Virus record (IMG/VR): IMGVR_UViG_3300037483_001170
Span: 42,781 to 106,780 of that record
DNA: 64,000 nt
From: a virus
Direction: 5' to 3' (one strand)
Shown: one piece after another, positions 1-60,670 of the stretch
Layout of the letters: each line of letters starts with the position of its first letter
How positions within the stretch are numbered: the first letter of the stretch is position 1
Program-made: the position numbers and the translations under genes
Notes under the pieces: model-generated
What the model saw: the letters and a program-made list of their open reading frames with translations, nothing else
Told to the model about the DNA's origin: nothing
Database searches by the model: none

Positions 1-598
1 CCACGTCAACGTTCCGTTCATCGCTTGAACGCGTGTCCGGTTCGTACTCGCCCATCAAACGTACCGCGATTCCCAGCGCCAACTCGGCATACGGGACTGG
101 AAGTGCCTGTCGAAACGTCAACGCCTCTTGCGATTCACTGACCGCTTCCCACGCTTCCGTTGCTGCGGTCCTAACCGAAATCGCCTTGCAGAGTGCCAAA
201 TACAAGGCGAACGACATGGCACGAGCGCGCTCGCTGTTGATGAACGCATATCTGGCGGCCTGATCGCGACGGAGATCGTCAATCTCCGCATGGCCATTGC
301 GCTCCGGCGTCACTTCGCGCGCCAACGCGTCAGTCAGCATGAGCATGGTTTCGTTGCACGATCGATGGTGCAAAAACGCCGCCCACGTTCGCGGATCTCT
401 CGCTACAAGCACACCAGCAACGTCAGCTGGCGTTGCTGTGCCAGCTAGAAAGTCGAGAAGAGTCGTGCGCAGCACGGCGCGCCACTGGTGCTCCTCGGTT
501 CTGAAGAATTCAACACACACCCACGGGCCCGGGTCTCCGTCTTCGGCCGCGTCCAGTCGTGCCTGGAGCATCGCGCCATCCATTGCCTGAATGTCCAT
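1..598 (-). CDS. hypothetical protein (3' end runs off window)
   Basis: Manual translation MDIQAMDGAMLQARLDAAED... stays open to position 1. The ATG overlaps the upstream TGA (TGATG). Confidence 0.6.
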   Translation of the reverse strand, partial: MDIQAMDGAMLQARLDAAEDGDPGPWVCVEFFRTEEHQWRAVLRTTLLDFLAGTATPADVAGVLVARDPRTWAAFLHHRSCNETMLMLTDALAREVTPERNGHAEIDDLRRDQAARYAFINSERARAMSFALYLALCKAISVRTAATEAWEAVSESQEALTFRQALPVPYAELALGIAVRLMGEYEPDTRSSDERNVDV

Positions 599-984
599 CA
601 GTCCTCCAGCGTCTGCTCACGCGTCCGACGCGTGAACTCGGCGAGCACTGCACTCGCTTCGCTCAGGTCCTTCGCCACGCCTTCGTAGCCGTCGGACTCC
701 ATCAGCTTCGCGTGCTGCTCCAGTCGCTTCCGAGTCCGGTCGATTCCACGAAGAGGCCCATCGGTCGTGAAGAAGAGCCGCTCGTTCGGCGCGACCCGCT
801 TCTTCTTGCCGAAGAACTTCTGCCAGAGCCAGAAGCCAACGGCCGCCGCCGCCAGAAGCAGGAGCAGCGTCCGAAGATCGAAGCCGCCTTCGCGCGCCAG
901 TGGAACCGGCGCCTGCGCGAGCGACAGCGGATAGAGCTGTTGCTGCGCGCGGCCCGGCGGCAAGACCGGCGCGTGATAGCTCAC
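598..984 (-). CDS. single-TM membrane protein, MSY/Asn-basic-tail family
   Basis: GTG start coupled to the upstream stop (GTGA). VSYHAP...LLLLLAAAAVGFWLW TM, then KKKRVAPN. Confidence 0.65.
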   Translation of the reverse strand: MSYHAPVLPPGRAQQQLYPLSLAQAPVPLAREGGFDLRTLLLLLAAAAVGFWLWQKFFGKKKRVAPNERLFFTTDGPLRGIDRTRKRLEQHAKLMESDGYEGVAKDLSEASAVLAEFTRRTREQTLED

Positions 985-1568
985 CGGGACGTGGCCTTCA
1001 TGTCGATGGTCATCATCGTCGCGCCAGACATGTCCGTCATCGCGATCGAATCCGTGACCTTCACGCACCACGAGTGGCAGTAGTCGCAGATCCATCGCTC
1101 AGGGCTCGACACGATCGCGATCTTGTCGTCCGACGCGGGCGCTCGACCGAGCTTGTTCTTGCAGTGCCAAGCCCAGTTAATCGCGAGGTGATTGCTGGGC
1201 GGCAGCTTGCCGTACTTCACCCAGTCGAGAGACATCGCCTTGTTGCCCTCCTGGACGTGGAAGAAATTCTGCTGACCGTGCTCGGTCCAGCAGACGGGGC
1301 ACTGTCCGACCAGCATGCACTCGGCACGACCGTCGCTGCCCTGGGTCATCTGAATCTCACACTCGATCGTGCAGATCTCCTCGCCCTTGTTGGTGGCCTT
1401 CCACAAGATCCACGTCTTCGGCGCGAGGTCTTCCGAGTCCACCGATGTGCCGGCGAAGCGGCCATCGCCGGGGCGACCCGCGCGATCCATCAGCGCGCGG
1501 CCCGCTGCCCACTCGCGCTCGCCCATCTTGCCGCCGAAAATGCCGCCGTCCTTCGAGATCTTTCTCAT
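981..1568 (-). CDS. hypothetical protein with Cys pairs (CPVC, CDYC), putative Zn-binding
   Basis: 195-aa ORF, SD-like GAGG upstream, coupled to the next gene. Confidence 0.7.
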   Translation of the reverse strand: MRKISKDGGIFGGKMGEREWAAGRALMDRAGRPGDGRFAGTSVDSEDLAPKTWILWKATNKGEEICTIECEIQMTQGSDGRAECMLVGQCPVCWTEHGQQNFFHVQEGNKAMSLDWVKYGKLPPSNHLAINWAWHCKNKLGRAPASDDKIAIVSSPERWICDYCHSWCVKVTDSIAMTDMSGATMMTIDMKATSR

Positions 1569-1574
1569 GCCCAG

Positions 1575-1955
1575 CTACCTCTTTCGCCGCCGCCGACGGC
1601 CATTCGCTTTGAGCTTCCCAGCTCGGAACTCCTGCAACACGCGATACGAAGCCCACATGCTCATCCCACTGAGCACGTAGAGCACGATCATCGGCGGCCC
1701 GAAGTAGGGGACGACGTACCGGCGGATCGTGGTGCGGATCGCCGGACCGACGATGTGCGTGTCGAGCGCCGCAACAATCCGCGGTCCCGCAGCAGCCAAC
1801 GTTCTATCCGGATTCGAGATCAGGCCGGCGGCAAGCGACGCGATGTTCGCCACGTCCTGGCCAGTGACCTGGCCCATGCCGTCGCCGCTGTCGTAGTTGC
1901 CGAGAGCGCGCGGACGACGACGCGGGCGCATCGCGAGCATGGTTGCCGCGCTCAT
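1575..1955 (-). CDS. small membrane protein with poly-Arg tail
   Basis: ATGA-coupled start; ALG and GMGQ motifs; hydrophobic C-terminal segment; ends LKANGRRRRRKR. Confidence 0.7.
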   Translation of the reverse strand: MSAATMLAMRPRRRPRALGNYDSGDGMGQVTGQDVANIASLAAGLISNPDRTLAAAGPRIVAALDTHIVGPAIRTTIRRYVVPYFGPPMIVLYVLSGMSMWASYRVLQEFRAGKLKANGRRRRRKR

Positions 1956-2260
1956 CGGTGGCTCCACCACCAGTAGCCACCAGCCGCGAGCGCCACTGCG
2001 CCGACAGCCCAGAGAGCGGTCGACGACGAGCCTGCGCTGCCGACCTGACTCGGCACGGTACTCTGCGTGGTCGTGATCGCGACCTCACTTCCCGTCGGCA
2101 CGCACTCGGGGGTCATGCCCACGCGGGCCGAGATCGACATGCCAGGAGGGCACATGTAGCAGCTCGAATCGGGAGGAATGTTACGACACTCCATCCGCGC
2201 GAGGTTGAGCCCAGGACGCACGGGAGTCGCCGTTCCGAGGCCAGACAGCGAATAGCTCAT
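1952..2260 (-). CDS. small Cys-containing protein with C-terminal TM
   Basis: MSYSLSGLG start; 4 Cys; ALWAVGAVALAAGGYWWW anchor. Confidence 0.7.
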   Translation of the reverse strand: MSYSLSGLGTATPVRPGLNLARMECRNIPPDSSCYMCPPGMSISARVGMTPECVPTGSEVAITTTQSTVPSQVGSAGSSSTALWAVGAVALAAGGYWWWSHR

Positions 2261-2712
2261 CGCCGCCTCCGGCGCGCACCGTTCGAGGTCACGCGCTTCT
2301 TCTTGCCTGCGAAGTAGCCGGCCGCCAGGGCGAGCGGGATCCCGACGAACGTGCCGACCGCGGTGATCTTCGCGTACTCCACGAGCTGGGCGTACGCGAC
2401 AGGCGCTGCCGCTGGACCGCCCCAGATGCTCGCAGCGGTCTGCGCGAATCGCGAGAGCACGGTGCCCTCCACGGCCTGCCCGAGCCCGAGAAGCGGCACG
2501 CCGCCGTTCCTGACGTAGTTCCCGTACACGTAGCGCGACCCGGGTCGAGCGCCGTCCAGGTTGATCTCCTGCTCCCCCCAGCGAAGCCGCGCCGGACTGT
2601 AGCCGGCGCCAGGAATCGGCGTGGTCGTGTCGTACGGATACGACCGGTACCGGCCGTAGTGACCCGGCAGGTACAACGCAGGCGTGTACGCCGGGAGCTG
2701 GAGCTTCGCCAT
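2257..2712 (-). CDS. membrane protein with GLGQ motif and poly-Arg tail
   Basis: MAKLQLP start; LLGLGQAVEGTV; TM; KKKRVTSNGARRRRR. Confidence 0.7.
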   Translation of the reverse strand: MAKLQLPAYTPALYLPGHYGRYRSYPYDTTTPIPGAGYSPARLRWGEQEINLDGARPGSRYVYGNYVRNGGVPLLGLGQAVEGTVLSRFAQTAASIWGGPAAAPVAYAQLVEYAKITAVGTFVGIPLALAAGYFAGKKKRVTSNGARRRRR

Positions 2713-2765
2713 GCCGAAAGTCTCGCGCACTCGGAGCCCAAGGGCAAGACCGAGGCGAACGACGA

Positions 2766-3062
2766 CTAGACCAGCTCGCCGACGATGTCCGACTCGTGCA
2801 CGACCAGGTGCTCGACCCCGTCGAGAACGATCTCGATGCCCGAGTACTGGCCGATCACCACACGGTCGCCGGCCTTGACGCTCGGCTCGATGCGCTTGCC
2901 CTCGACGAGCGCGCCTGGGCCACACGCGATGACCGTCGCCTCCAGCGGCTTCGCCTTCGCGGTGTCGGGGAAGATGATGCCACCTGCGCTCTTCTCTGGC
3001 GGCTTCTCTCGGCGTACGACGATGCGGTCGCCCAGCGGACGGATTTCGGTCTTCTTTTCCAT
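2766..3062 (-). CDS. groES: co-chaperonin GroES (Cpn10)
   Basis: IRPLGDRIVV, SAGGIIFPDTAKAKP, VKAGDRV motifs; GGAG SD upstream of the ATG at 3062. Confidence 0.95.
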   Translation of the reverse strand: MEKKTEIRPLGDRIVVRREKPPEKSAGGIIFPDTAKAKPLEATVIACGPGALVEGKRIEPSVKAGDRVVIGQYSGIEIVLDGVEHLVVHESDIVGELV

Positions 3063-3074
3063 GCTCACTCCTTC

Positions 3075-3671
3075 TTACGGGTTCCAGATGCCTGACGAGA
3101 CAGCCGGCGCCGACGCCGGCTTCGGCTTCTTCCTGCGACTCCCGCGCTTGCTCGTGCGCTTCGCTGGCTTTCCGGGCTCGACCGCAGCTGCCGGTCCGCG
3201 CTTCTTTCGTGACGTCCGCTTGGGCCCTGGAGCCTTCGGCTTCCGGCTCGTGCGCTTCGGCGACGCCTCAGCCGCCTGCTCTTCGGCCTCGCGTCCGCCG
3301 TCGGCGGCGAGCTTCGCGATCACGAGCTTCTTCAGGTCGGCGCTGGCGAACCGTCCGGTCTTTCCTGCGAGCAGGTAGACGAGCTTGCCCTCCTCGTCGA
3401 TGACGCCAACCGCCTGCGAGTCGAGCAGTTTCTTCGCCTCAGCAGAAAGGAAGCGGAACGTCGTCGACCGGTCGTAGACCGCGCGGCTCAGGTACTCCCT
3501 GAGCTGGATCCGGAAAGCACCGCCAGCGTCGAGATGACATTCGATGGTTCGGTACCATCGTCCGGTACTGGGCGGGCCGGCTGTGCCGGAGGTTGGGGCG
3601 GCGGCGAGAGCTGCTGGGGCACTGCGCTTGGCGCCGAACGCGCGACTGCCGTTGGAGCTGTTGTCGGACAT
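3075..3671 (-). CDS. basic protein with histone H1-like K/R/P/A-rich tail
   Basis: Three KRTS(R/K) repeats in the C-terminus; TATGCT 8 nt upstream of the ATG. Confidence 0.6.
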   Translation of the reverse strand: MSDNSSNGSRAFGAKRSAPAALAAAPTSGTAGPPSTGRWYRTIECHLDAGGAFRIQLREYLSRAVYDRSTTFRFLSAEAKKLLDSQAVGVIDEEGKLVYLLAGKTGRFASADLKKLVIAKLAADGGREAEEQAAEASPKRTSRKPKAPGPKRTSRKKRGPAAAVEPGKPAKRTSKRGSRRKKPKPASAPAVSSGIWNP

Positions 3672-4207
3672 CGGCCGGGAGCATACGCACGACTGTCGGA
3701 CACTGGCAAGACCGCAATGCGAGATCTGCGAGCCCAGATCGGCCACGCTCGGCTCAGGTCCGGCTCGACGTACCAACGCGCCGTCAGCTTGTCGGGACGC
3801 CAGAGCGCTGGGACGACGACGACGACGTAGTCCGCGACGCGCTGCCACTCGGCGAGGGCAACGTCTGGATGTTCCAGATGTTCGAGCACGTCGCACGCGA
3901 ACAGCGCGCCAAAGTAGCGGTCTGACCACGGCATCGTGTAGTAGTTGCTGTAGCTGACGACGTTCGGCCCCGGCACGCACACGGGCGCGCACTCGTCGAG
4001 GTTCACGTCGCCGTAGAGACGCGAGCCTAGGATCGATGCGCGTACGCTACGACCGCTCACGCCAGCGCCAAGGTTCACGAGCGGCTTCTGGCGCATCCGG
4101 GCGATCTTTCGCGCGATGCCTGCCATCTCGTACGGACGGGTGACGGCATCCCGCAGGTACGCCGCGCTGGCGATGCCGAGCCCCACCTTGATCAGTGCGT
4201 CGCGCAC
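3488..4207 (-). CDS. class I SAM-dependent methyltransferase-like protein
   Basis: LVNLGAG motif I and CDVLEHLEHP post-II motif; Pro-rich tail overlaps the next gene. Confidence 0.7.
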   Translation of the reverse strand: MRDALIKVGLGIASAAYLRDAVTRPYEMAGIARKIARMRQKPLVNLGAGVSGRSVRASILGSRLYGDVNLDECAPVCVPGPNVVSYSNYYTMPWSDRYFGALFACDVLEHLEHPDVALAEWQRVADYVVVVVPALWRPDKLTARWYVEPDLSRAWPIWARRSRIAVLPVSDSRAYAPGRCPTTAPTAVARSAPSAVPQQLSPPPQPPAQPARPVPDDGTEPSNVISTLAVLSGSSSGST

Positions 4208-4240
4208 GCTTTAGGCTACCAGTTGCAGCACGTGGCGGCC

Positions 4241-4567
4241 ATGAGCTACCATTTCCCCATGAGCTACCAGCGGATCGCCGGGATGAGATCGAACCGTTTC
4301 CCTCTCATGGGCCTCGGCTGCGCGGGCTGCAACGGGCGCTGCGCGGGCACGGCCCCTGGCACGTCCGGCCTCGGCTGCGGAGGTGGCTGTGCGCCGCCGA
4401 TCATGTCCGTCGCTGGCCTCGGGCACGCGCTCGGGCTCGACGTCGAAAGCGCTGCCTTCGGGCTCGGCATCGCGGCCGCAGGCTTCATCGGCCTCGGCGC
4501 CGGCTGGTTCGCACACGGCGCGCTCGCACCACGTCGTAACCGTGGGCGTCGTCGGCGCACGAACTGA
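4241..4567 (+). CDS. small Gly/Cys-rich membrane protein with five GLG repeats and Arg tail
   Basis: MSYHFP start; GLGC twice; TM; PRRNRGRRRRTN. Confidence 0.65.
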   Translation: MSYHFPMSYQRIAGMRSNRFPLMGLGCAGCNGRCAGTAPGTSGLGCGGGCAPPIMSVAGLGHALGLDVESAAFGLGIAAAGFIGLGAGWFAHGALAPRRNRGRRRRTN

Positions 4568-4575
4568 ACGCCCTC

Positions 4576-4875
4576 ATGAGCTACAAGCACGGCTTCGGAC
4601 AGGCGGTCGCCGAGGGCACCGTCTTCAGCCTCACCGATCCGGATGTTGCTGCTCAGCAGCCGCCGACGCCCGTGCCCTCCAGCAAGCCGAGCGGTGGCTC
4701 TCCAGCTCCGTACTACGGACCGCCCGCCACCGTCGGCAAGACCTCGGGCACGCCGATCACGAGCGCGAGCTTGCCGACGTACGCGGCTGGCGCGCCGAAC
4801 TGGATGCCGTGGGCGATCGGTGGAACGATCACCGTGGTCGGCATCGGGCTCGTACTGGCAGCGCTACGTCGCTGA
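4576..4875 (+). CDS. small Pro/Ser/Thr-rich protein with C-terminal TM
   Basis: MSYKHGFGQAVAEGTV; WAIGGTITVVGIGLVLAALRR. Confidence 0.7.
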   Translation: MSYKHGFGQAVAEGTVFSLTDPDVAAQQPPTPVPSSKPSGGSPAPYYGPPATVGKTSGTPITSASLPTYAAGAPNWMPWAIGGTITVVGIGLVLAALRR

Positions 4876-5079
4876 TCAGGTAGGCGCCGCGGGCGTTCGA
4901 CGCTCTGCACACAGCAGGCAGCAGGCGAAGCCCACCACGCGTAGCGCCGTCCCCGTCTCGTACAGCCACGTCCAGCGTGTAGCGAGGCCACACCGTGCGC
5001 ACTGGCCGACGTCGACGACTGCGACGCGGTACAGCGTCGATCCGTCAGCGTAGGTCGCCATAGGCTCGGGCGTCGTCAC
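4876..5079 (-). CDS. small hypothetical Zn-finger protein
   Basis: CARC and CLLC pairs. Confidence 0.45.
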   Translation of the reverse strand: MTTPEPMATYADGSTLYRVAVVDVGQCARCGLATRWTWLYETGTALRVVGFACCLLCAERRTPAAPT

Positions 5080-5160
5080 GCACGCCTCCGCCGTCGCGAC
5101 GAGCGCACGGGCACCGCGACGACGAGCGTCACCATCAGACCGCTGATCTCGACACGCGCT

Positions 5161-6605: not shown

Positions 6606-6670
6606 CTTCCCAGTCTTTCTTTTCTTCTGCCCAGATCTGCCCAGAAGCGCGCCGTTCGGACGCGCCTCGC

Positions 6671-7257: not shown

Positions 7258-7273
7258 CTGAACGTTCCTTCCG

Positions 7274-7355: not shown

Positions 7356-7365
7356 AACGTCCGAC

Positions 7366-7997: not shown

Positions 7998-8009
7998 GAC
8001 GCTCTCCCG

Positions 8010-8066: not shown

Positions 8067-8067
8067 G

Positions 8068-9072: not shown

Positions 9073-9089
9073 CGGACGGAAAGAGATAG

Positions 9090-14187: not shown

Positions 14188-14862
14188 ATGAGCTACACCA
14201 TCAATCACTGGATCCTCATCAACGGCGGCATCGAGGAGGTTGCCTGGGCACACACCCTGGCCACGCAGATCTTCCCGCCCGAGCAGGTCTCGGCCGTCCT
14301 ACGCGCGGCCATCAACTACGGAGGCTACCTCAGCGTCGCACCAGACGGCAGCAAGGAGGGCTGGGACGTCTCGGACGATTTCGATCGGCGCCGAGCCGAG
14401 TTCATGGCCTCACTGCTCGTCGGCCGGCTGCTACATGACCATGTCATGTCGTGGACCGTCTTCGGGCTCGGTGAAGACGGCGAGGGGCCATCGATCATGG
14501 AGTACCACGACCCCCTGTTCTACGCGCTGCTCGAAGGCGAGCCCGTTCACGAGTACCACAACCTGACGCTCGCCCACGCGCTCACGCCTCTCGACATCCT
14601 CGTACCCGGACGGGAAAACGAGCGATGGCGCGGGTGCGTCAAGGCGCGGGTGGCCGCGATGTCAGACGCGGCCACAGGTCTAGTCGAGATCGTCTCGGCC
14701 GAAACAATGGTGCTAGCCAAGCTGCTCGATGCTCCCGACAAGTACGGAGCCATCGGCACGCCCGACAAGCTCAGCACGGGTGCGCGCGCGTTCTACGACG
14801 AACTCCTCGCCGATGCGCATCACGCCTTTCCCGGCGCTCACGCGAGCGTCCGATTCCGATGA
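14188..14862 (+). CDS. hypothetical phage protein
   Basis: APDGSKEGW motif; GGAG SD. Confidence 0.65.
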   Translation: MSYTINHWILINGGIEEVAWAHTLATQIFPPEQVSAVLRAAINYGGYLSVAPDGSKEGWDVSDDFDRRRAEFMASLLVGRLLHDHVMSWTVFGLGEDGEGPSIMEYHDPLFYALLEGEPVHEYHNLTLAHALTPLDILVPGRENERWRGCVKARVAAMSDAATGLVEIVSAETMVLAKLLDAPDKYGAIGTPDKLSTGARAFYDELLADAHHAFPGAHASVRFR

Positions 14863-15092
14863 CCGCACGCTCCACCACCGTCGTCCACGCCGGCCGGACG
14901 TGGCTCGTAGAGCTTCCGCCGGTCACGAGCCGGCACGAGTGCCCCCGCGTCGACGGGACGCCGGCTGACGACCCCGAGGACGTCCGGATGTTCGCGTACA
15001 AGCTCGGCGACCGCTGGCACTCGCCGGGCTACACGCACCCGGGGCTCGCTGCGGCGTTCAACACCGCGATCGGCGCGCTCGAAAGCAGCTGA
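14859..15092 (+). CDS. hypothetical protein
   Basis: ATGA coupling. Confidence 0.5.
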   Translation: MTARSTTVVHAGRTWLVELPPVTSRHECPRVDGTPADDPEDVRMFAYKLGDRWHSPGYTHPGLAAAFNTAIGALESS

Positions 15093-23840: not shown

Positions 23841-24539
23841 CTAGTTCGCGCCTGAATCAGGTCCAGGGCTCGCCTGCGTTGTCCAGTACCCGGGCATCCC
23901 GAACGGCGACCACTTCGACTGCGGCACCGTGAGAAACGAGAAGACCTGATCGCCGGTGACCGGTCGACCGTCCGCCGTCTTCACCGACAGCGTCCAGCCA
24001 GTCATGGGCCCGTTCGAGTGCGTGAGCACGAGATTCAGGCCGGCGACCGAGAGCGATGCGCCGCTTGTGGCCTGCATGGTTTCCAAGAATGCTGGCGGAA
24101 ACCCGGTGAGCGAGCCGCGAAGCTCTGGCGCGAACATCGCCGCTGCCTCTGGCTGCACGCTCGCCGGAGCTGACGAGCGTCTTGAGCGTTCGGCGGCGCC
24201 GGCATCAGCATGGCGGTCACCGTTCCAGCACCACTCTGGCCAGTAGAACATCGCCTGTCCGGTCGGAGTCTCGTTGGCAGTCGGGAAGCCGTGGGCCTCC
24301 GTGAGACCGGCGGTCGCCATGCGCGCACCAACGGCCGTTGCCCGCTCGCCGGCTGCGAGCTGTGGATCGAAGCCTACGCAGCCCAAGAACTCGACTGGAA
24401 AATAGCCAGCGCGTCGCACAATGGCCTTCAGGCCCTCTGACGTCGGCGCCTTGCGCTCAGCAGCGTCTGCCGCGAGGTGGCACTTCTTGTACTTCCTGCC
24501 GGACCCGCAGTGGCACTCGTCGTTTCTGCCTAGGCTCAT
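23841..24539 (-). CDS. SEC-C motif-containing protein
   Basis: N-terminal LGRNDECHCGSGRKYKKCH. Confidence 0.8.
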   Translation of the reverse strand: MSLGRNDECHCGSGRKYKKCHLAADAAERKAPTSEGLKAIVRRAGYFPVEFLGCVGFDPQLAAGERATAVGARMATAGLTEAHGFPTANETPTGQAMFYWPEWCWNGDRHADAGAAERSRRSSAPASVQPEAAAMFAPELRGSLTGFPPAFLETMQATSGASLSVAGLNLVLTHSNGPMTGWTLSVKTADGRPVTGDQVFSFLTVPQSKWSPFGMPGYWTTQASPGPDSGAN

Positions 24540-25030
24540 CACCGCACCGTTGCTGCGATCCAGACCACGCCGACCACCGCCGCTCCGATCACTGCCCAAA
24601 GCAGCGGAGCGTCGTACCACTGCCGTTCAGCTGCGCGACGCGCTTGCTCCTGCGTCGCCTGAACCTGCGTCACGAGTTCCGTCTGCCGCGCGGTCCAGAG
24701 GTCGTCGCGCAGCGTCAGGCGCTCCTCAGCGGCGAGAACGTGTGCGTGCTCGATCTGCACCCGCACGTCGCACCGCTCGGAATCGCGCTCGGCCGTGCGC
24801 GTCAGCAGGTAGCGCATGCGTTCGTACTCGTTGCGAATCTGAAGCAGATCAGCCGCTTCGATCAGAAGCCCATCGTGCGGCGCGGCCGCCCCGCGGCGAA
24901 GCGGCAGCACCTCTCCTGTCTCCGGCAGCTGGAACTGCTCGGGGGTGCCGGGGGCGATCGCGTCCTGTCCGGAAGCCACGGCGGGCACTAGGGCCATCGC
25001 GGCAAACGCGAGCGCGTGGAAGTACTTCAT
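24539..25030 (-). CDS. secreted coiled-coil protein with C-terminal TM (spanin-like candidate)
   Basis: Signal peptide MKYFHALAFAAMALVPAVASG; APHDGLL; coiled coil; terminal TM. Confidence 0.6.
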   Translation of the reverse strand: MKYFHALAFAAMALVPAVASGQDAIAPGTPEQFQLPETGEVLPLRRGAAAPHDGLLIEAADLLQIRNEYERMRYLLTRTAERDSERCDVRVQIEHAHVLAAEERLTLRDDLWTARQTELVTQVQATQEQARRAAERQWYDAPLLWAVIGAAVVGVVWIAATVR

Positions 25031-31632: not shown

Positions 31633-31946
31633 CAGCCGGCCAGCCTGACGCACGTCTGCTCGTAGAAGGCCCGGAACAGGTCGGACGCGGCTCCCAGCTC
31701 GGCGAGATCGGCCGGCGGCTCGTTGAGCCGGTAGATGCCGGTGCCATCGTTCGCGCGGCGACAGAAGCGCTGCTGGAGCATCACGGCCTGGTCGTGCGTG
31801 TCCGTGCTGAACGTCGGCAGGGCTCCACGCGAAAGCGGCTGGTCACGCTCCCGGATGAAGACGGCGCCATCTGCGGTCACGCCGAGAAAGAAGCGGCGAT
31901 CCAGATCTGCGCGTTGCATCGGCATGAGCACCTCCCACGAGTACAT
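31632..31946 (-). CDS. hypothetical protein
   Basis: ORF in the leftward cluster. Confidence 0.55.
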   Translation of the reverse strand: MYSWEVLMPMQRADLDRRFFLGVTADGAVFIRERDQPLSRGALPTFSTDTHDQAVMLQQRFCRRANDGTGIYRLNEPPADLAELGAASDLFRAFYEQTCVRLAG

Positions 31947-31987
31947 AGCGCTTCATTCGCTGCGCGCAACAACAAATCGCAGCATCG

Positions 31988-32224
31988 TCAGACGCGTGTC
32001 TTCTTCAGATACGCCGTCGTCTCTTCCAGGCGCATGCGCGCGGCCGCTACGCGGATCGCGCAGAAGGCCTCTGCGTCGACGTCGCCGGAGTCGCGCGCGT
32101 GATCCTCGTCTAGTGCCTCCAGCAGTTCCGTGACAGCGTCGAGCAGCTTCTGGAGACGGCGCGACTCGCTGCGTGCGTCATCCTGGGCATCGCGCAACGC
32201 CTCGTCCCGGCTGTCGCCGTTCAC
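31988..32224 (-). CDS. hypothetical protein
   Basis: GTGA coupling. Confidence 0.5.
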   Translation of the reverse strand: MNGDSRDEALRDAQDDARSESRRLQKLLDAVTELLEALDEDHARDSGDVDAEAFCAIRVAAARMRLEETTAYLKKTRV

Positions 32225-32535
32225 GTTCGCGGAGCCACCCGGACCTCGAACGTTCGCTCGCCGGTCTCAGAGTCGGCAACACGCTCGTCGCAGGTCCACG
32301 GATAGCCGATCGGCAGCGCATCGAAGCGCTCGTGGTAACGCTGCGGCGCCGCCGCAATCTGCGAGAACGGCGCGTAGCCCGCGCGCAAGTCTACCGTCGA
32401 CTGCGCCAGCCACACGCCCGAGAAACCATTCAGCGCATCCGCCTCATCGGTGCCCTGGGCAACGACGTCAACGTCGAGACAGGTGGCAACCCATGCACAC
32501 GTGTCGTACATCATCAGAATCCGCAGTGACTTCAC
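32221..32535 (-). CDS. hypothetical protein, HicB-like N-terminus
   Basis: WVATCLDVDVVAQGTD..DAL; GGAGG SD. Confidence 0.55.
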   Translation of the reverse strand: MKSLRILMMYDTCAWVATCLDVDVVAQGTDEADALNGFSGVWLAQSTVDLRAGYAPFSQIAAAPQRYHERFDALPIGYPWTCDERVADSETGERTFEVRVAPRT

Positions 32536-32546
32536 GGGGCCTCCTG

Positions 32547-33410
32547 TTACTTCACGTCGATGCGGCGAACGTGTGTCCTGAACAACTCGCCTGCGCGCTT
32601 GCCGATCGCCTGGCGAGCCTCCTTGGTGTCGACGAACTCGCCCGCACCTTCGCGTAGGACATCCTCGGTCATCGCACGAATCACGTCGCCGGTCTTCTCG
32701 ATGCCGATGCCCTGCGGCAGCTTGTCGAGTACGTGCTGGAGCCTCGTCGAGGTGCACCACTCGGTCGCGATCGCCGACGCATTCGTCAGCACTTCGAGCT
32801 GGCTGGGATCGACGACCTTGCGCGGCGTCGCCGTCTCGCGTTCGTCGTCACGCTTGTGCTTGGCCACGATGCGATCGGTGCCGTATCGAAGCTCTACGAG
32901 CGGCCGCAGTACCACGCCCTCTCGTGGCTTGTCCCCCTCGACGCCGTTGCGCTTCGCTTGTTCAGACGGTGCGTCGCGCTCTGCATCAAGCACGGCGAGG
33001 TCGGTCGAACACCGAACGTAGTGCACGAACTCCAGGCCGAGCTTGCCAGCCACGTCCGCCGCCTCGGGAACAGAAAGCCAGACGTCGCCGATCTGCACCT
33101 CGAACGCCGCGAACTTCAGCGTCGGTCCGTAGCGCCACGCCTGCTTCTGGCAGCTACCACCGTACGCCTCGCCGTAGACGACCAGGGCCTGATGACCGAA
33201 CCTCTCGAACACGGCCGTGAGCGCCGGCTCGTCGAAGAGCGCCGCGAATCTGACCTGCGACTCTCCGCCCGGCGAGAACCACACCTTGCCCTGACGCCAC
33301 GACACGTGAGTTGACGTGCCGTGGAGCTTCTCCATGGCGTAGCACTCCCGGAACAGCAGGATCGTCTGCCCCTCCGGGCGGTACAGGTTTGCGATCGACG
33401 CGTATGACAT
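32547..33410 (-). CDS. RNA ligase, Rnl2 family
   Basis: Motif I EKLHGT, YGEAYG, FAAFEV, REGVVLRP, AKHK. Confidence 0.88.
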   Translation of the reverse strand: MSYASIANLYRPEGQTILLFRECYAMEKLHGTSTHVSWRQGKVWFSPGGESQVRFAALFDEPALTAVFERFGHQALVVYGEAYGGSCQKQAWRYGPTLKFAAFEVQIGDVWLSVPEAADVAGKLGLEFVHYVRCSTDLAVLDAERDAPSEQAKRNGVEGDKPREGVVLRPLVELRYGTDRIVAKHKRDDERETATPRKVVDPSQLEVLTNASAIATEWCTSTRLQHVLDKLPQGIGIEKTGDVIRAMTEDVLREGAGEFVDTKEARQAIGKRAGELFRTHVRRIDVK

Positions 33411-46403: not shown

Positions 46404-47213
46404 TCACGTCTTCAGCTTCGGCTGCCGCGCTGCCCAGATCGCCAGGCCACCCATCAGAAGTGCGCCACCGCCACCCGCCACAACCCACGGAACCCAGCTA
46501 GGTACGCCAGCAAAAACGCTCCGCTGAGCCGTGTGCCCCTCATGTTCAATCGTCACGTAGTTCTCGGGCCAACCGATTGAACCCCCGCGGGGCGCACTGT
46601 CACCCCCCTCCGAGAGGTACCAGTTTCCGTCTCGCATCACGATGCGTGACTGCGGGTTCCGGCGCATGAAGCTGGCCGACACAGTCGCGTCGGCGAAGTC
46701 CGTCGCACGTGGCACAGCGTTCGGCGTGCGCGCCTGCGCCCAGCGAAGCACCGTCGGCGCAGACGGCAGACTGTCCCACGAACGGCTTGCTGCTTCCTGG
46801 CGGCGCGCCAGCTGCGACGGCGTACACCGATCTGGATGTGCCACACAGCCCGATCCGGACATCGAAGCCCAGATCGGATTCACCGGCTGACTGTGCGCGC
46901 GCACGAGTGAGGCGAGGTTCGAGCCCTGACGGTTCGCCAGCCGCTGCGCGTACGTCCAGAGCGTCGCGTTCTTATTGCCGCCCTCGTACTGGATCGAGCG
47001 TGCAAGCCAGAGCGCGTCCTCCGGTGTGATCTGGTACGACCAGCCGTCTGCCGTTCTGATGCGACCCAGCTGGGAAGCAACAGGCGCCGCACCCAGGCCC
47101 ATCGCCTCGCGCGAGATGCGCCAAGACGGAATTGGCACAGCTTTCACCGTGCGAAAAGACGAGCCCCGATGCAGATCGAGGTCATACAGCGGTACTCCGG
47201 CGCGGTAGCTCAT
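46404..47213 (-). CDS. putative SleB-like cell-wall hydrolase with C-terminal TM
   Basis: MSY start, AMGLG, DALWLARSIQYEGG catalytic-Glu-like motif, WVPWVVAGGGGALLMGGLAIW. Confidence 0.55.
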   Translation of the reverse strand: MSYRAGVPLYDLDLHRGSSFRTVKAVPIPSWRISREAMGLGAAPVASQLGRIRTADGWSYQITPEDALWLARSIQYEGGNKNATLWTYAQRLANRQGSNLASLVRAHSQPVNPIWASMSGSGCVAHPDRCTPSQLARRQEAASRSWDSLPSAPTVLRWAQARTPNAVPRATDFADATVSASFMRRNPQSRIVMRDGNWYLSEGGDSAPRGGSIGWPENYVTIEHEGHTAQRSVFAGVPSWVPWVVAGGGGALLMGGLAIWAARQPKLKT

Positions 47214-47303
47214 GTGCAAAGCGTAGCGCATCACGAGCAAAACTTGCCAGTGTCCGACACTTGTGGCAGTGTGTCGTATGCTCCATCAGCACGAGGAATG
47301 TTC

Positions 47304-53966: not shown

Positions 53967-54013
53967 CTGCTGGAGTGCCGCAACCTCCTGGTCCTTCTCG
54001 TCGTCGGACACGC

Positions 54014-54385: not shown

Positions 54386-54394
54386 CTTCTTCTC

Positions 54395-54883: not shown

Positions 54884-54887
54884 TTGC

Positions 54888-56047: not shown

Positions 56048-56105
56048 GGTGTGTCGCAAGCTACAGGAGTCGCACGGCCACGTCTAGCCTGATACTCTCG
56101 GGTCC

Positions 56106-56651
56106 ATGAGCAGAGTCCTCATCGTCGGCGATAGCCAGAGCGGCGCGCCCGGCTCCGTGGCGCAGCGTAAGCTCCAGACCCTCGGTCACATCGTGCAAAA
56201 AGTCGAGAACGACGGCCGCGGGCCGTACGACTACGTGCGAATGCCCGACCTCTGGGCCCAGTACACGGGGGCCATCGCGGCGTTCCACCCCGACATCATC
56301 TTGCTCATCTTCGGCCACAACGACGCGCCGAACCAGAACCTCCGCGACGCGCTCGTGCGCATGAAGCAGAACGTGCGACCGAAGGTCGTGCTCAGCGGCC
56401 CGCCACAGTATGCAGACCCGACGGCGCAGGCTCACGGCGCGCAAGTGAAGGCGATCTACTCCAGCGTCTTCGGAAGCGACTTCCTCGACGCGTACCCGTT
56501 CACCAGCACAACGCTCCCGCACGCGGCGCCTACGGCGGCCTTCCCGATCAACCCGCACTTCACGCTGGCCGGAGCGGAGCCATGGGGCACGGCCATGGCA
56601 GACGAGGTGCACCGGAGACTTTCCAACCCTCTTCGTTCTGGCCGCGCATAA
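56106..56651 (+). CDS. SGNH/GDSL hydrolase
   Basis: VLIVGDS block I, FGHND block III, PHF catalytic His. Confidence 0.75.
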   Translation: MSRVLIVGDSQSGAPGSVAQRKLQTLGHIVQKVENDGRGPYDYVRMPDLWAQYTGAIAAFHPDIILLIFGHNDAPNQNLRDALVRMKQNVRPKVVLSGPPQYADPTAQAHGAQVKAIYSSVFGSDFLDAYPFTSTTLPHAAPTAAFPINPHFTLAGAEPWGTAMADEVHRRLSNPLRSGRA

Positions 56652-56771
56652 CCCCCTCGGCTGGGTTGGCGTGGCCATCGCGGGTGTAGCCGGAGTAGCG
56701 CTTCTCGGCGGAGCGACATGGTGGGCGGTCAGACAGCGACCGCAGAAGAATAGAAAACGGAGACGGCTGCG

Positions 56772-57233
56772 GTGAACTTCAACTTCGACTGGGTGGTGCC
56801 CAACCGCCTCGCTCAGGGAGCCTTTCCTGGCAAGACCATCGCGGTCTTCAACGACTGGGACGTCGTCGTGTACTGCGCCGAGGAGCTTCAGCCGAAGTTC
56901 AGTGTCATGCCGAACGGCAAGCACGTCTATTACTGCCCGATGGATGATGACATCTACCGGCCGGTCCCACAACGCGATGTGCAGAAGCTGTGGCCGCTCG
57001 CCGGCAAGGTCGCCGATCACGCTCGGCGCGGACATCGATGCCTCGTCACGTGCGCGATGGGCGCGAACCGCAGCGGCTTGCTGATGGGCCTGACGCTGAT
57101 GCGCCTGAATGGAATGAGCGGATCTGCCGCCGTCGACCTGATCAAAGCTCGACGCAGGAGCGGGGACCAGGAAGCGCTCTCGAACCCGATGTTCGAACAG
57201 TTTCTGCGCGCGTCCCTCGTCCACCGTCGATGA
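56772..57233 (+). CDS. dual-specificity / tyrosine phosphatase family protein
   Basis: LVTCAMGANRSG Cx5R; MDDD loop; N..F motif. Confidence 0.85.
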   Translation: MNFNFDWVVPNRLAQGAFPGKTIAVFNDWDVVVYCAEELQPKFSVMPNGKHVYYCPMDDDIYRPVPQRDVQKLWPLAGKVADHARRGHRCLVTCAMGANRSGLLMGLTLMRLNGMSGSAAVDLIKARRRSGDQEALSNPMFEQFLRASLVHRR

Positions 57234-57682
57234 TCGGCCGCGCGCACGACGAGGACGAAGACTTCGTCGATGACGAAGTGTCGGCGCACGCCAAAATCAG
57301 CGTGCCGAAAACAGCGCGCGGCGTCTCGGCCAAGCCGTTCATGGCTTCATGGAAGCTGATGCGCGAGCAGCTTTTCATGGAGCAGCGCGTGCCGTACACG
57401 AAGCTGCCGAAGTACGTCGAGAAGTACCTTCGGCTTCTTTTTGACACGACCGAGGGCGCGGCGCTGAGGGCGATGAAGATCGGTGACGTGCCCTTCTTTA
57501 TCGGCTGGATGTTCAGGCTCGACGCGATCGATGTCGCCATGATCGACGGCGGCTTCCAGCTCGCCGACCGCGCGGCCCTCATCCGCTTCCGAGCAGCAGT
57601 CGACGGCTACCGGGAGGTGGCCGAGAAGCGACTGCGAAAACTCGGGGGACGGTGGCCGCCGGTCGCGAAGAACGAGCGTTAG
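57230..57682 (+). CDS. hypothetical protein
   Basis: ATGA coupling. Confidence 0.55.
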   Translation: MIGRAHDEDEDFVDDEVSAHAKISVPKTARGVSAKPFMASWKLMREQLFMEQRVPYTKLPKYVEKYLRLLFDTTEGAALRAMKIGDVPFFIGWMFRLDAIDVAMIDGGFQLADRAALIRFRAAVDGYREVAEKRLRKLGGRWPPVAKNER

Positions 57683-58509
57683 CTGGACCGCGGCTGCCTT
57701 ACGGCGGCCTCGCGCTCCAGAGTCTCAAGGCTCTCGTGACGGCGTTCCCACTCCGCGTGCGCCAGGTCTGCAATCTCGGAGACCTGGTCCATGTCGAGCG
57801 CGCCGACGATCTGCTCCCAGTACGCACGGATGCTAGAGGGGACCGTAGGCTCCGCCGCGTTGACCTCGCCCACGGGGACCGCGGGCGAGGTCGTGTAGGT
57901 CACGCTCGATGTCCATGGAGCAGGATGCGAGGAGTACGAGCCTGGGTAGGCCGGGCCCATGGGGCCCAGTCCCACCATACCCGCGCGCCGCGCCTCACAC
58001 GCGCACATGGACGGCGCGGGCGGCGGCGCCGAGCGCGCTGCGACCAGACCGGCCAAGGCCATCGTGAACGCCGGCATGTGCTCTTCCAGAGCCGGCAAGA
58101 GCCGATCGGCGAGCGTCTCAGGCCGCGCGTAGAAGTGCGCGCGCAGTGCGCGCAGCACGTGATCGCGAGCATCGTCGATCTTGACGGCGTCGCCGGCCTC
58201 GCTGCCCTCCGCGATGCCTTCGAGAGCCTCCAGGCAGGTGACCAGCGCTCTCATCTGGCGAGACCCGATCGCCTGCTCACGTTTGTAGGCACGCGCTTCG
58301 GCGGCGGCCATCGCAGCGTCCGCGGCCTCTGCCGCCTCGTCCGCCGCCTGCTGCTCCGCCTTCGCCTCAGCGCGAGCGTGTGCCTCGCGCTCCACCAGAA
58401 GGCGCTGGTTGTCGCGCTGCATCTCCAGCAGCAGACGCTGATGCTCTAGCTCCAGTCGGCGGATCGCTTCCGGCGTCTCGACCACGGGGCCCGTCTCGTT
58501 CGTGTTCAT
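57679..58509 (-). CDS. coiled-coil hypothetical protein
   Basis: GGAG SD; 276 aa. Confidence 0.6.
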   Translation of the reverse strand: MNTNETGPVVETPEAIRRLELEHQRLLLEMQRDNQRLLVEREAHARAEAKAEQQAADEAAEAADAAMAAAEARAYKREQAIGSRQMRALVTCLEALEGIAEGSEAGDAVKIDDARDHVLRALRAHFYARPETLADRLLPALEEHMPAFTMALAGLVAARSAPPPAPSMCACEARRAGMVGLGPMGPAYPGSYSSHPAPWTSSVTYTTSPAVPVGEVNAAEPTVPSSIRAYWEQIVGALDMDQVSEIADLAHAEWERRHESLETLEREAAVRQPRSS

Positions 58510-58518
58510 CCGCTTCTC

Positions 58519-58929
58519 CTACTTTTTCTGGCCATGCATGACGTCGAGGATGTCGCGCTTCAGCGCCTGCCGACGAACGCCGTCGTCGACGTACCGCGTG
58601 ATCTCGGGCCACGTGATCAGCACGCGCGTCGGCTTCTGGCATCCGCCGCAGCGCACGTTGTAGTAGACGCCGCTTGTCGTGGGCTGCGTGCCCGGAAGCG
58701 GCTGGCCGAGCACGAAGCACGCGACCTCGCCCCACAGGATGATGTGCTTGACCTGCGCCGAGCAGTACGGGCAGTTGCTGACGAGCAGAGCCCCGTTCTT
58801 GACGACGTGCTCGCTCATCTTCTCGTCGTCCGGGAAGAGGTGCTGGCTGCCCTCGATCGAGACGACGGAGTCGAGAACGATGCCCTTGTCCTCGGTCCAG
58901 GTGTTCCGCGGGTTCCCGTTGTTGCTCAT
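58519..58929 (-). CDS. Zn-ribbon hypothetical protein
   Basis: CPYC..CGGC; TACCGT 8 nt before the ATG. Confidence 0.65.
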   Translation of the reverse strand: MSNNGNPRNTWTEDKGIVLDSVVSIEGSQHLFPDDEKMSEHVVKNGALLVSNCPYCSAQVKHIILWGEVACFVLGQPLPGTQPTTSGVYYNVRCGGCQKPTRVLITWPEITRYVDDGVRRQALKRDILDVMHGQKK

Positions 58930-59015
58930 GACGTCCGACGGTAATGCTTCCGCCGCCCTGAAACAAGTGGGGTCCGACAGGGACGCCCAGCGACACCCGC
59001 GCTACCATTGGGCCC

Positions 59016-59192
59016 ATGAGCTACAGAAAGCCCGCACGCCTCGGCGACTGGTCTAGCGATGCCCAGCGCGCCATGACCGACAACCCGAGCTACTTCGTCT
59101 GGTGGTACAGCGCGAAGAGCCTCGGGCTCGTCGCGGCGATCGGCGTCGCGGCGTACTACGCCGGAAAGGATGCGGGGCGACGGTCAGCTTGA
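59016..59192 (+). CDS. 58-aa membrane protein, MSY family (absent from ORF track)
   Basis: MSYRKPARLGDW..LGLVAAIGVAAYYAGKDAGRRSA; TACCAT 7 nt before the ATG. Confidence 0.65.
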   Translation: MSYRKPARLGDWSSDAQRAMTDNPSYFVWWYSAKSLGLVAAIGVAAYYAGKDAGRRSA

Positions 59193-59702
59193 TGCGGGCG
59201 TCCGACACTTCACGTCGGTCGCGTTGTACGCGGCTTCTTCCAGATGGTTTCCGCGGTACGCGTTCGGCTCCGAGCGAAGCCATGCAGCGAACGAGGCGCC
59301 GATGTACGCGAAGGCACCGCTGAACATCCAGCAGGCGAAGAACGCGACCAGGCCGCCCCAGCTGTGCGTGATGGCCAGCACGAGCAGGCCGAAGAGGAGG
59401 CCGCCGATTGCCGCAGCCATCCCCTGCTCAACGTGGACTTCCTCGTGCTGAAGAACGACGTCGCTCTGACCAGGCGCGAGCATGATCCCGAATCCGAAGC
59501 ACGTGCCACCCCAGTTCCGGTACCAGCCGCCCCACTTCTTCTGCGGGTTCATGGGCCAGCTCGTCGGCGATAGCGTCGTGACAAGCACGCCGTTCGCCCA
59601 CTTCTTCGTGTCGCCCCAGAGCGCGTGAACGATGCGGGCGATGAGCGTGCCGAAGTAGAGCGGCCAGCAGAGAGAACGGAGGACGACGGTCTTCGTGTTC
59701 AT
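59184..59702 (-). CDS. membrane zincin-like protein
   Basis: HEEVH..2 TM..YRGNHLEEAAY. Confidence 0.7.
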   Translation of the reverse strand: MNTKTVVLRSLCWPLYFGTLIARIVHALWGDTKKWANGVLVTTLSPTSWPMNPQKKWGGWYRNWGGTCFGFGIMLAPGQSDVVLQHEEVHVEQGMAAAIGGLLFGLLVLAITHSWGGLVAFFACWMFSGAFAYIGASFAAWLRSEPNAYRGNHLEEAAYNATDVKCRTPASS

Positions 59703-60670
59703 GCTGCCCTCGCACGACGACGACGATTCGGTTGCATGCGACTGCGCATCGCGAAGAACGCGCCGCCACCGGTGAGCACGACTGCGCCGACGCCGATCGC
59801 GGCCCACTCCATCGGTGTCAGACCGAAGCGGACGTCTCGCTCGAACTTCACCGGCTCGTAGCCACCGGGCACGAACTTTCCCGGCTCGACGGGGGACACG
59901 CCGGCGCTGACCAGCGGAGACGCCGGGCTGGCGGCCCAGATGTCACCGCTGGCCTTGCCGGCGTCGGCTGCCTTGCCGGAATCGGCCACCGCGTTCGCCA
60001 CGCCGAGGCCTGCCATCGACGTGCTCGCGGAGATCAGCGGCTGCCAGCTCGCCTGACTCTGGGCGGCCTCGCTGCCGGGCGCGATCGAGACGCCGCCGCG
60101 CGAGGTGAAGACGATGCCCTTGCTGCGAAGCCAGTCGCTCGGGTTGATGTTGTACTGGGCGTCGGCGGCAGACGTGGGGTAGCGCCCGGGGAACGGTGAT
60201 CCGCCGTCCGGTCGCCGCCTGACCTCGACATGGAGGTGCGGCACCATGGGCCCACTCCGATATCCACGCGCACGAGCTTCACGTGCCCACGCCGCAGCAT
60301 CCTGTCCGGGCATCGGAGAGAATTGGCCATTAGAAGAATTTCCCATGCGGCCAACCGTCTGACCCGCGCGTACCATCTGACCCTCCGCAACCGTCGCCTG
60401 ATCGAGGTGCGCGTAGAGCGTGTACGTGTTGTCCGGGTGCCTGATGACGACCGCGGTCCCGTAGCCGGCAAGGCCTGCTGGCGACTCGTTGCGGCCGACC
60501 ATGGCGACAACGCCGTCGTCCATCGCGAAGACCGGCTCCCCGCGACCCCTGGAAGTCGACAAGTCGAGTCCGCCGTGGAAGTGCGCTGCGCCATCGCGCC
60601 GGCTCGGGCGCTCGCCGTAGCGACTCACTACCCTGGCTGTCGACGGATTGATAGGCGGCGAAGCGGACAT
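59699..60670 (-). CDS. M23 family peptidoglycan peptidase with C-terminal TM and Arg tail
   Basis: HGGLD, GYG..V.I.H, YAHL, PHLHVE; MAGLG; TM; MQPNRRRRARAA. Confidence 0.9.
   Translation of the reverse strand: MSASPPINPSTARVVSRYGERPSRRDGAAHFHGGLDLSTSRGRGEPVFAMDDGVVAMVGRNESPAGLAGYGTAVVIRHPDNTYTLYAHLDQATVAEGQMVRAGQTVGRMGNSSNGQFSPMPGQDAAAWAREARARGYRSGPMVPHLHVEVRRRPDGGSPFPGRYPTSAADAQYNINPSDWLRSKGIVFTSRGGVSIAPGSEAAQSQASWQPLISASTSMAGLGVANAVADSGKAADAGKASGDIWAASPASPLVSAGVSPVEPGKFVPGGYEPVKFERDVRFGLTPMEWAAIGVGAVVLTGGGAFFAMRSRMQPNRRRRARAA

Follow-up and report, generated by a model that had tools for sequence, protein, structure and literature searches.

Two modular terminal tags on otherwise unrelated late proteins of a lineage of large uncultured viruses

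Introduction

Why should about ten otherwise unrelated proteins of a single virus begin and end alike? The question is raised by a stretch of 64,000 nucleotides (hereafter, the window) that corresponds to bases 42781–106780 of the 106,780-bp virus record IMGVR_UViG_3300037483_001170, in which proteins with little else in common bear the same short tags, namely an MSY start, a G-L-G(-Q) motif, a membrane anchor and an asparagine followed by an arginine tail. The first-pass annotation, made from the letters alone, had read these elements as a processing and sorting code of a lipid-containing large phage. All the peptides that it quoted, including all six tails, were recovered by a six-frame search; here we describe the tags, their conservation and their genomic setting, and weigh what they might be for.

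The record, 65% G+C and without a terminal repeat, is ~47% complete (CheckV). The virus and its lineage are uncultured; the DNA comes from sediment metagenomes, and the lineage is also present in other metagenomes. No close isolated phage was found (megablast of 5.8 kb; tblastn of the protein g68). Because spurious open reading frames (ORFs) abound at 65% G+C, we built a codon-usage gene caller, which yielded 184 genes in the 107-kb fragment, with many 4-bp overlaps and GGAG-type ribosome sites. A hydrolase-like protein, g155 (46404–47213), led to a 297,749-bp IMG/VR genome (G001) that is syntenic with the whole 107-kb fragment and shares 66–81% nucleotide identity with it in conserved genes, and the alignment of the 118 metagenomic homologues of g155 led to further relatives, namely three genomes, measuring 161.5, 171.5 and 159.9 kb, of which two have direct terminal repeats, and two smaller records, including a 66-kb fragment. 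Below, G0 denotes the 107-kb fragment of the window, G001–G004 (G1–G4) the four large relatives and G005 a further relative; of the genomes searched, three are rated 100% and one 90% complete. The genes of the relatives were called in the same way, and the pooled set comprises 1355 proteins from five genomes.

Results

Definition and statistical support of the two tags

The first tag is a predicted N-terminal leader, in which M-[ST]-Y is followed by a spacer of ~0–50 residues and by G-[LMF]-G, usually then Gln; L, M, F or Y often stands two residues ahead of the first Gly, and typical starts in the relatives are MSYAGLGQ, MSYRGLGQ and MSYRQPARARRLPGLHGLG. The second is a predicted C-terminal anchor, consisting of a Trp-/Gly-rich hydrophobic helix, a juxtamembrane [KR][KR]-x-V-x-x-N and four to ten arginines. 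Typical ends in the relatives are WAIGGAVAVVGLG followed by KKPVTSNRRRRARRRR, KKSTPNRRRVRRNRRRR or SPNVRRRRRRK. There are ~20–25 tagged proteins per genome; those of the window, with the elements that each carries, are the following.

598..984, minus strand: g65, 128 amino acids (aa); GTG start read as VSYHAP, helix at ~aa 39–55, then KKKRVAPN and a 70-aa C-terminal extension
1575..1955, minus strand: g67, 126 aa; without MSY, DGMGQ at aa 25–29, helix near the C-terminus, tail KLKANGRRRRRKR
1952..2260, minus strand: g67b, 102 aa; starts MSYSLSGLG, C-terminal helix, short basic end SHR, ATGA overlap with g68
2257..2730, minus strand: g68, 157 aa; LLGLGQAVEGTV at aa 80–91, helix at aa 120–138, tail KKKRVTSNGARRRRR
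4241..4567, plus strand: g71, 108 aa; starts MSYHFPMSYQ (second MSY at 4259), LMGLGC in a Cys/Gly-rich region, VAGLG, helix, tail PRRNRGRRRRTN
4576..4875, plus strand: g72, 99 aa; starts MSYKHGFGQAVAEGTV (Gly motif HGFGQAVAEGTV), Pro/Ser/Thr-rich linker, W-x-IGG Gly-rich helix, RR end
46404..47213, minus strand: g155, 269 aa; MSYRAG start, 48-aa leader ending in AMGLG, conserved hydrolase-like domain, helix, end ARQPKLKT
56106..56651, plus strand: g172, 181 aa; esterase-like, GDS motif (SGNH type, sub-threshold)
56626..56772, plus strand: helix and RQRPQKNRKRRRLR tail in the +1 frame relative to g172, ending in a GTGA overlap with the next gene
59016..59192, plus strand: g177, 58 aa; MSYRKPARLGD start, helix, end KDAGRRSA
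59699..60670, minus strand: g179, 323 aa; M23 peptidase domain, linker with MAGLG, helix, tail SRMQPNRRRRARAA

The MSY/VSY starts reported at 984 (−), 2260 (−), 4241 (+), 4576 (+), 47213 (−) and 59016 (+) were thus confirmed, and each of the reported glycine motifs (LSGLG, LLGLGQAVEGTV, HGFGQAVAEGTV, LMGLG, VAGLG, AMGLG, MAGLG and DGMGQ) was located in the genes listed. An extra member lies outside the window (MSYRAPIRRPGLGQ, at 31739–32581 of the 107-kb fragment).

This grammar is not random, in that shuffles keeping the residue composition never reached the observed counts. The window contains 8 MSY starts against 0.16 expected (0 of 2000 shuffles reached 8), and G[LMF]G occurs within the first 90 residues of 7 of its 14 C-terminally anchored proteins against 1.4 expected (0 of 1000 shuffles). 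The Asn just ahead of the basic run, for which the window alone is underpowered (2 against 0.6 expected), was found in 37 of 104 cases across the five genomes against 10.6 expected (0 of 2000 shuffles); of 65 tails, 21 have it directly ahead of the first arginine run and 36 have it within three residues. MSY is the top N-terminal tripeptide in each of G0–G4 (8/184, 18/468, 8/221, 19/258 and 13/224 proteins, respectively), an excess with binomial p of 1e-5 to 1e-16 over the product of the Ser2 and Tyr frequencies.

Four features, [LMF]GQ, MSY, a C-terminal helix and [KR][KR]xVxxN-RRRR, occur together in the pooled set with odds ratios of 13–33: MSY with LGQ (odds ratio 16, p 3e-18), MSY with the C-terminal helix (odds ratio 13, p 2e-23) and LGQ with N-polyR (odds ratio 33, p 2e-22), p-values that overstate independence because orthologues and paralogues were pooled. 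MSY is a feature of the protein, as its Ser codon varies (AGC, TCG, AGT, TCA and TCC), MTY stands in for it in the relatives and two of the MSY/VSY starts fall in ATGA/GTGA overlaps with the stop of the upstream gene. An explanation of MSY by leaderless mRNAs was rejected, 52 of 66 MSY genes having a Shine–Dalgarno-like site upstream. MSY starts without an anchor were found at 14188 and 33410, and in a helicase outside the window.

Conservation and modularity

When the orthologues of six window families are aligned, M-S-Y, G-[LM]-G-Q and N-Arg are seen to be retained, and the spacers and linkers between them vary in length and in sequence; the position of the Asn and the Gln after GLG are held across genomes sharing only 30–60% identity. 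For instance, orthologues of g65 start with MSYH in G003 and G004 and keep [KR]P-x-x-x-N after the helix in G002, G003 and G004. Two orthologues of g67 (G2_154 and G3_91) start with MSYA, and G[LM]GQ with an A/P-N-R(4–5) tail is kept in all five genomes. Those of g68 retain P-L-[LR]-G-[LM]-G-(Q) and N with poly-Arg, and those of g179 in G002 and G003 retain SRMQPNRRR. In G001, the orthologue of g71 retains PLMGLGC, MAGLGQ and PRRNRGRRRR, and that of g72 has an MSYHGEGFGQ start and the same helix with a divergent linker. For g67b, no orthologue was found in the relatives at E ≤ 1e-3; its GC3 of 0.76 is the highest of its three codon positions.

The g155 family shows the modularity of the tags best. 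Its anchor is kept in 21 of 21 aligned sequences, and those of the 118 metagenomic homologues that were read end in a helix and basic residues. Many of them start with M[ST]Y..GLG, and the leader is 48 or 5–15 residues long, or absent with the start at GLG. Since homologues of g155 occur with and without the leader, and the cargo proteins are unrelated, the tags behave as separable modules. The refuting outcomes named in the first-pass annotation, motifs at chance frequency or lost from homologues, were not observed, and the pattern is stronger than first described. One homologue, P0118, fuses a g155-type domain with a g172-type esterase, and in the relatives PN-RRR tails also end non-membrane, Arg/Ser-rich basic proteins.

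The cargo is diverse, including an M23 peptidase, a hydrolase-like domain, an esterase and small Cys-rich or Pro-rich proteins, which bears out the first-pass view that the tags are attached to unrelated domains; its three domain names fared unequally. The M23 assignment of g179 is firm (PF01551, E 6.2e-21, 74.8 bits), with the HxxxD and HxH motifs present as HFHGGLD and HLH. The SGNH esterase g172 has the GDS motif, but its match scores 21.7 bits against a cut-off of 27.2. The proposed SleB-like hydrolase is unsupported by sequence searches: the g155 family had no Pfam or PHROG match at E ≤ 0.01, a profile of 21 homologues had none among Protein Data Bank (PDB) chains at E ≤ 10, and the likeness to SleB/Hydrolase_2 is confined to a Glu-containing motif.

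The tail PQKNRKRRRLR ascribed to the esterase is present, but not in the esterase frame: the g172 gene stops at 56651, and the helix-plus-Arg tail continues in the +1 frame. The split is also found in G001 (14290–15033, minus strand), where the +1 frame is open for only nine codons ahead of the stop, and is thus not an assembly error. In G003, G004 and G005 the tail is in frame, giving anchored orthologues. Two origins of the split are conceivable: a programmed +1 frameshift, from which both a soluble and an anchored form would result, and a micro-ORF that lacks a start codon.

Export and sorting signals

The leaders are hydrophilic and lack a Sec or Tat signal. A contrasting protein of the same virus, g113 (24539–25030, minus strand), conserved in the relatives, pairs a classical signal peptide with a C-terminal helix that no Arg tail follows. 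Accordingly, neither the N-domain of the tagged proteins nor their tail of 6–12 arginines is an obvious substrate for translocation across the host membrane.

A hydrophobic helix followed by a basic cluster is common to the tagged proteins and to sortase- or exosortase-type signals, and the first-pass annotation had invoked the logic of LPXTG, PEP-CTERM and MYXO-CTERM. This could not be upheld: none of the curated sorting-domain models of NCBIfam (LPXTG, PEP-CTERM, MYXO-CTERM, GlyGly-CTERM and others) matched any of nine tagged proteins at E ≤ 1, no conserved motif stands just ahead of the helix, where only a loose P/W-x-x-IGG helix start recurs, and the signature Asn sits after the helix. No sortase, exosortase or rhombosortase was recognised among the ~70 proteins covered by general PHROG and Pfam scans.

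A candidate processing enzyme

In the relatives, a transglutaminase-like protein of 198 aa is encoded directly upstream of the main tag cluster (L049:3545–4141 in G003; L019:7996–8571 in G001). It has 162 homologues at E ≤ 0.001, with 57–94% identity among the 120 matches listed, and its Cys119/His157/Asp174 triad is invariant in 26 sequences. Matches of its orthologues to PF01841 (Transglut_core) cover nearly the whole model but, at 17.3 and 18.6 bits, stay below the cut-off of 23; for two homologues, hits to this model are precomputed. Two activities of the protein are conceivable, proteolysis at G-L-G and transglutamination of the conserved Gln. A complex prediction of the protein with a 45-residue leader was uninformative (score 0.02).

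Part of the sites agree with the adenovirus-type cleavage consensus proposed in the first-pass annotation. G-[LMF]-G is enriched, and 30 of 163 such sites are followed by Gln, but just 17 of the 30 GxGQ sites have a fitting P4 residue (L, M, F or Y), and Peptidase_C48, the one clan CE family searched for, had no match at E ≤ 1 in the five genomes. Separately, a 172-aa protein encoded next to the M23 gene (59184–59702, minus strand) combines an HEEVH (HExxH) motif with two or three hydrophobic helices; as a core processing enzyme it was rejected, having an orthologue only in G003 and no family match.

Late block, capsid and packaging genes

The main tag cluster (G3 genes 222–236; G1 genes 371–398) belongs to a conserved late block that also encodes the lineage's most conserved proteins. 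The best-conserved of these, G3_246 (~265 aa; G003, L050:2554–3429), has 252 homologues at E ≤ 0.001, with 66–99% identity among the 120 matches listed. A shallow alignment gave a structural model with a predicted local distance difference test (pLDDT) score of 43.9, which was unusable; deepened with representatives of 50% clusters, it gave a single jelly-roll with pLDDT 74.8. In the VIA comparison, nucleoplasmin core scores highest (Z 7.7), ahead of the SPV1 capsid protein (Z 7.4 over 134 aligned residues) and P23-77 VP17 (Z 6.6); proteins of STIV, PR772, HHIV-2 and HCIV-1 come next. The top Foldseek match in the PDB is SPV1 (E 0.05), and no HK97 fold is listed among the structure matches. 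With all Z < 8 and Foldseek E ≥ 0.009, the scores fall below the significance guide of the tool, and the matches thus give a fold class, not kinship. An Atlas search with G3_246 gave a weak pointer (0.76) to PM2 P2 families, and no usable result came from PDB sequence searches for G3_246, G3_247 and G3_221, from Pfam on 50 homologues of G3_246 or from Atlas for G3_247. The second of the two most conserved late proteins (G003, L050:3604–4563) has a helical N-terminus of 65 residues followed by a beta-rich region.

Six-frame Pfam searches of the five genomes yielded no match to Terminase_6N or Terminase_6C (E ≤ 0.1) or to Phage_portal or Phage_capsid of the HK97 type (E ≤ 1), although very divergent versions could escape such searches. 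Pox_A32 had no match, and FtsK_SpoIIIE had only a 16-bit match inside a 956-aa ORF of G002. The general PHROG and Pfam scans of ~70 large or core proteins recognised replication and metabolic functions and, phrog_1645 excepted, no family for head, tail or packaging. Several results favour the lipid-containing large phage postulated in the first-pass annotation, namely the missing HK97 capsid, portal and terminase matches, the jelly-roll late protein and the Cys-His-Asp protein beside the cluster; but with fold matches that stay below significance and an FtsK/A32 packaging ATPase not recognised, a membrane-containing virion is plausible, not demonstrated.

Other features of the locus

The palindrome TGTCNGACA is present at 12 places in the window, where 1.0 would be expected. 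Two of these precede the starts of anchored-enzyme genes by an equal distance, and the others are dispersed.

47251..47259, no strand: TGTCCGACA palindrome, 38–46 nt upstream of the g155 start
60708..60716, no strand: TGTCCGACA palindrome, 38–46 nt upstream of the g179 start, the spacing being the same as for g155
3662, 3694, 15094, 19433, 27994, 35977, 38842, 42731, 45046 and 45274: other TGTCNGACA sites

The equal spacing upstream of both enzyme starts suggests that g155 and the M23 gene g179 may share a regulator. No RNA record is listed for the stretch in an expression look-up.

The functions recognisable in the virus comprise helicases, ParB, NAMPT, an AAA ATPase, a glycosyltransferase, GroES and one phrog_1645 'virion structural protein'. 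The last is encoded by the last full gene of the window, is the only structural-category match of the PHROG scan and has at best ~33% identity to cyanophage and HMO-2011 proteins. The gene for the GroES-like co-chaperonin (2766–3062, minus strand), recognised by eye, is located inside the block of tagged small membrane proteins. In G003, the late proteins of genes 244 and 245 (924 and 245 aa; L049:18770–L050:2425) share a C-terminal GG-x-FARHLF-x-GM, which may be another shared assembly tag. Host assignment from metagenome-assembled genomes was rejected, because the labels of related contigs contradict each other (Armatimonadota, Gammaproteobacteria, Planctomycetota, Patescibacteria and Hyphomonadaceae).

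Discussion

The reading that we tentatively prefer, at somewhat less than an even chance, is that the tagged proteins are membrane and core proteins of the virion and that the leader is a removable or assembly signal. In this reading, a lineage of large bacterial viruses (160–300 kb) labels a set of its late proteins with two modular tags. The labelled proteins would be parts of the virus particle, with the helix embedded in a virus-associated lipid layer and the Asn–poly-Arg tail facing and neutralising the packaged DNA, an orientation suggested by the identical PN-RRR tails of non-membrane Arg/Ser-rich proteins in the relatives. The N-terminal cargo would include cell-wall enzymes used at entry, by analogy with the transglycosylase P7 of PRD1. 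The leader would act as an assembly or maturation signal recognised at G-L-G, perhaps removed by the Cys-His-Asp transglutaminase-like protein encoded directly upstream of the cluster. We favour such a scheme because it would explain how numerous the members are, where they lie in the late block, the entry-type enzymes on anchors, the identical tails on non-membrane basic proteins and a topology that ordinary host-membrane insertion does not account for. A more specific version, in which the lineage consists of tailless bacterial viruses of 160–300 kb with an internal membrane, the MSY..G-L-G-Q leader is cut by the transglutaminase-like protease and the Asn–poly-Arg anchors tie about twenty membrane and core proteins, with entry enzymes included, to the DNA, is possible but rather doubtful.

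Several points weigh against the virion reading. It is a prediction from sequence and models. Besides the pooling that inflates the co-occurrence statistics, 31 of 75 M[ST]Y proteins, such as a helicase and an exonuclease, lack a C-terminal helix, so that MSY alone is not specific to the tagged set. The transglutaminase-like gene is not on the 107-kb fragment of the window and its Pfam scores are sub-threshold only. Jelly-rolls also serve as decoration, turret and fibre domains of tailed phages, to which the sub-significant fold matches of G3_246 may be added, and no packaging ATPase of either type was recognised in the five genomes. Finally, in PRD1-like budding the vesicle lumen is topologically periplasmic, which does not fit easily with poly-Arg tails that would face the DNA.

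The rival accounts differ mainly in where the tagged proteins would act. They might belong to a tailed jumbo phage that has diverged very far, as its internal or ejected proteins, with MSY..GLG as a capsid-targeting propeptide, comparable to the T4 targeting sequence of internal proteins, that is cut by a prohead protease, the Arg tails binding DNA in the head, the hydrophobic segment entering the host membrane after ejection and the cell-wall enzymes acting at entry. Such a phage would suit leaders that are modular, variable in length and end at a fixed motif, M23 and hydrolase-like cargo typical of ejected proteins, and the match of the last full gene of the window to phrog_1645 of T4-like cyanophages; paralogue expansions of processed head proteins are, moreover, a feature of phiKZ-like phages. 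We nevertheless regard it as unlikely, given that three genomes rated 100% complete and one rated 90% yielded no match to a terminase, portal, HK97 capsid, sheath or tail family, and that the structural model of the most conserved late protein is a jelly-roll and not an HK97 fold. Alternatively, the site of action might be the host envelope, in lysis, cell-wall remodelling or superinfection exclusion, with poly-Arg as a positive-inside topogenic signal that keeps the C-terminus cytoplasmic and the leader promoting unconventional export of the N-domain. The M23, hydrolase-like and esterase cargo would indeed act on the cell wall, a helix followed by basic residues is a generic positive-inside pattern, and the equally spaced TGTCNGACA sites of the two enzyme genes suggest co-regulation. 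That role is improbable, however, for proteins without a Sec or Tat signal in a virus whose g113 carries a classical signal peptide. An anchor at the C-terminus is no means of exporting an N-domain of 200–480 aa co-translationally, topology alone leaves the invariant Asn and the identical PN-RRR tails of non-membrane proteins unexplained, and 20–25 such proteins per genome far exceed known lysis cassettes.

Two further accounts concern the reality and the type of the signal. Common descent of fast-evolving paralogues together with the Gly, Ala and Arg bias of 65% G+C DNA could in principle mimic a tag, since several members are tandem neighbours (598–4875 in the window; G3 genes 222–236), some share sequence beyond the motifs (for example, GLGQAVEGTV with GFGQAVAEGTV), and Gly-rich helices and Arg runs are low-complexity sequence. 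The failure of every composition-keeping shuffle to match the observed counts, the unrelated folds of the cargo domains, the independence with which tags come and go relative to cargo among homologues, and the retention of the Asn position and of the Gln after GLG at 30–60% identity make it very unlikely that there is no signal at all. That the C-terminal module is a sortase- or exosortase-type signal, cut near the Asn by a transpeptidase that joins the cargo to wall, lipid or protein, seems barely plausible. The helix and basic cluster resemble LPXTG, PEP-CTERM and GlyGly-CTERM, and the near-invariant Asn adjoins the basic cluster; yet nine members match no sorting-domain model, the conserved residue follows the helix on its basic side, unlike in all known signals, where it precedes the helix, and the general scans of ~70 proteins revealed none of the cognate enzyme families.

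We found no published description of such viruses or tags in the literature, and a conserved leader ending in G-L-G-Q and an invariant Asn before a poly-Arg tail would be new even under the rival accounts. If the tags were a virion assembly and maturation code, sequence alone would suffice to list the structural proteins of this widespread uncultured lineage, in which head, tail or packaging genes are not recognisable. If a lipid layer and a jelly-roll shell were present in the virion, membrane-containing bacterial viruses would extend to genomes several times larger, 160–300 kb as against less than ~50 kb for the members known so far.

Among known systems, the sorting signals LPXTG, PEP-CTERM, MYXO-CTERM and GlyGly-CTERM share with the tagged proteins a tripartite layout ending in a hydrophobic helix and a basic cluster, but differ in the placement of the signature residue, in the model matches and in the cognate enzyme, which general scans of ~70 proteins did not reveal here. 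The capsid-targeting leader of T4, cut at L/I-x-E by the gp21 serine protease of this tailed phage, is likewise a short conserved N-terminal leader on unrelated cargo, which in T4 ends at the protease site and directs incorporation into the particle; no gp21-type protease, portal or HK97 capsid was found in the present lineage. The internal-membrane phages PRD1, PM2, P23-77 and SPV1 have membrane-anchored virion proteins, such as the PRD1 transglycosylase P7 (PMC6356626). Small virion membrane proteins, virion cell-wall enzymes and jelly-roll capsids would be the points of likeness, the weak fold matches of G3_246 including SPV1 and P23-77; the lineage described here differs in its genome size, in the lack of a detected FtsK/A32 ATPase and in the sub-significance of those matches. 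To our knowledge, the genomes of internal-membrane phages are all under ~50 kb, and we know of no shared sorting tag described for them. In adenovirus, the adenovirus protease (AVP) processes the precursors pVI, pVII and pX/Mu. The differences are that the candidate enzyme here has the Cys-His-Asp order of transglutaminase- or papain-like proteins and AVP the clan CE order His-Glu-Cys, that P4 conforms in only part of the sites, with no Peptidase_C48 match and a bacterial host, and that adenovirus has neither membrane anchors nor an MSY start. Nevertheless, the two would resemble each other in hydrophobic-x-G-x-G sites near the termini of several unrelated structural proteins, Arg-rich DNA-condensing core proteins, a hydrophobic segment beside Arg runs (in pX), processing by a cysteine protease and a jelly-roll capsid lineage. 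The scheme proposed here, if true, would constitute a bacterial counterpart to adenovirus-type maturation.

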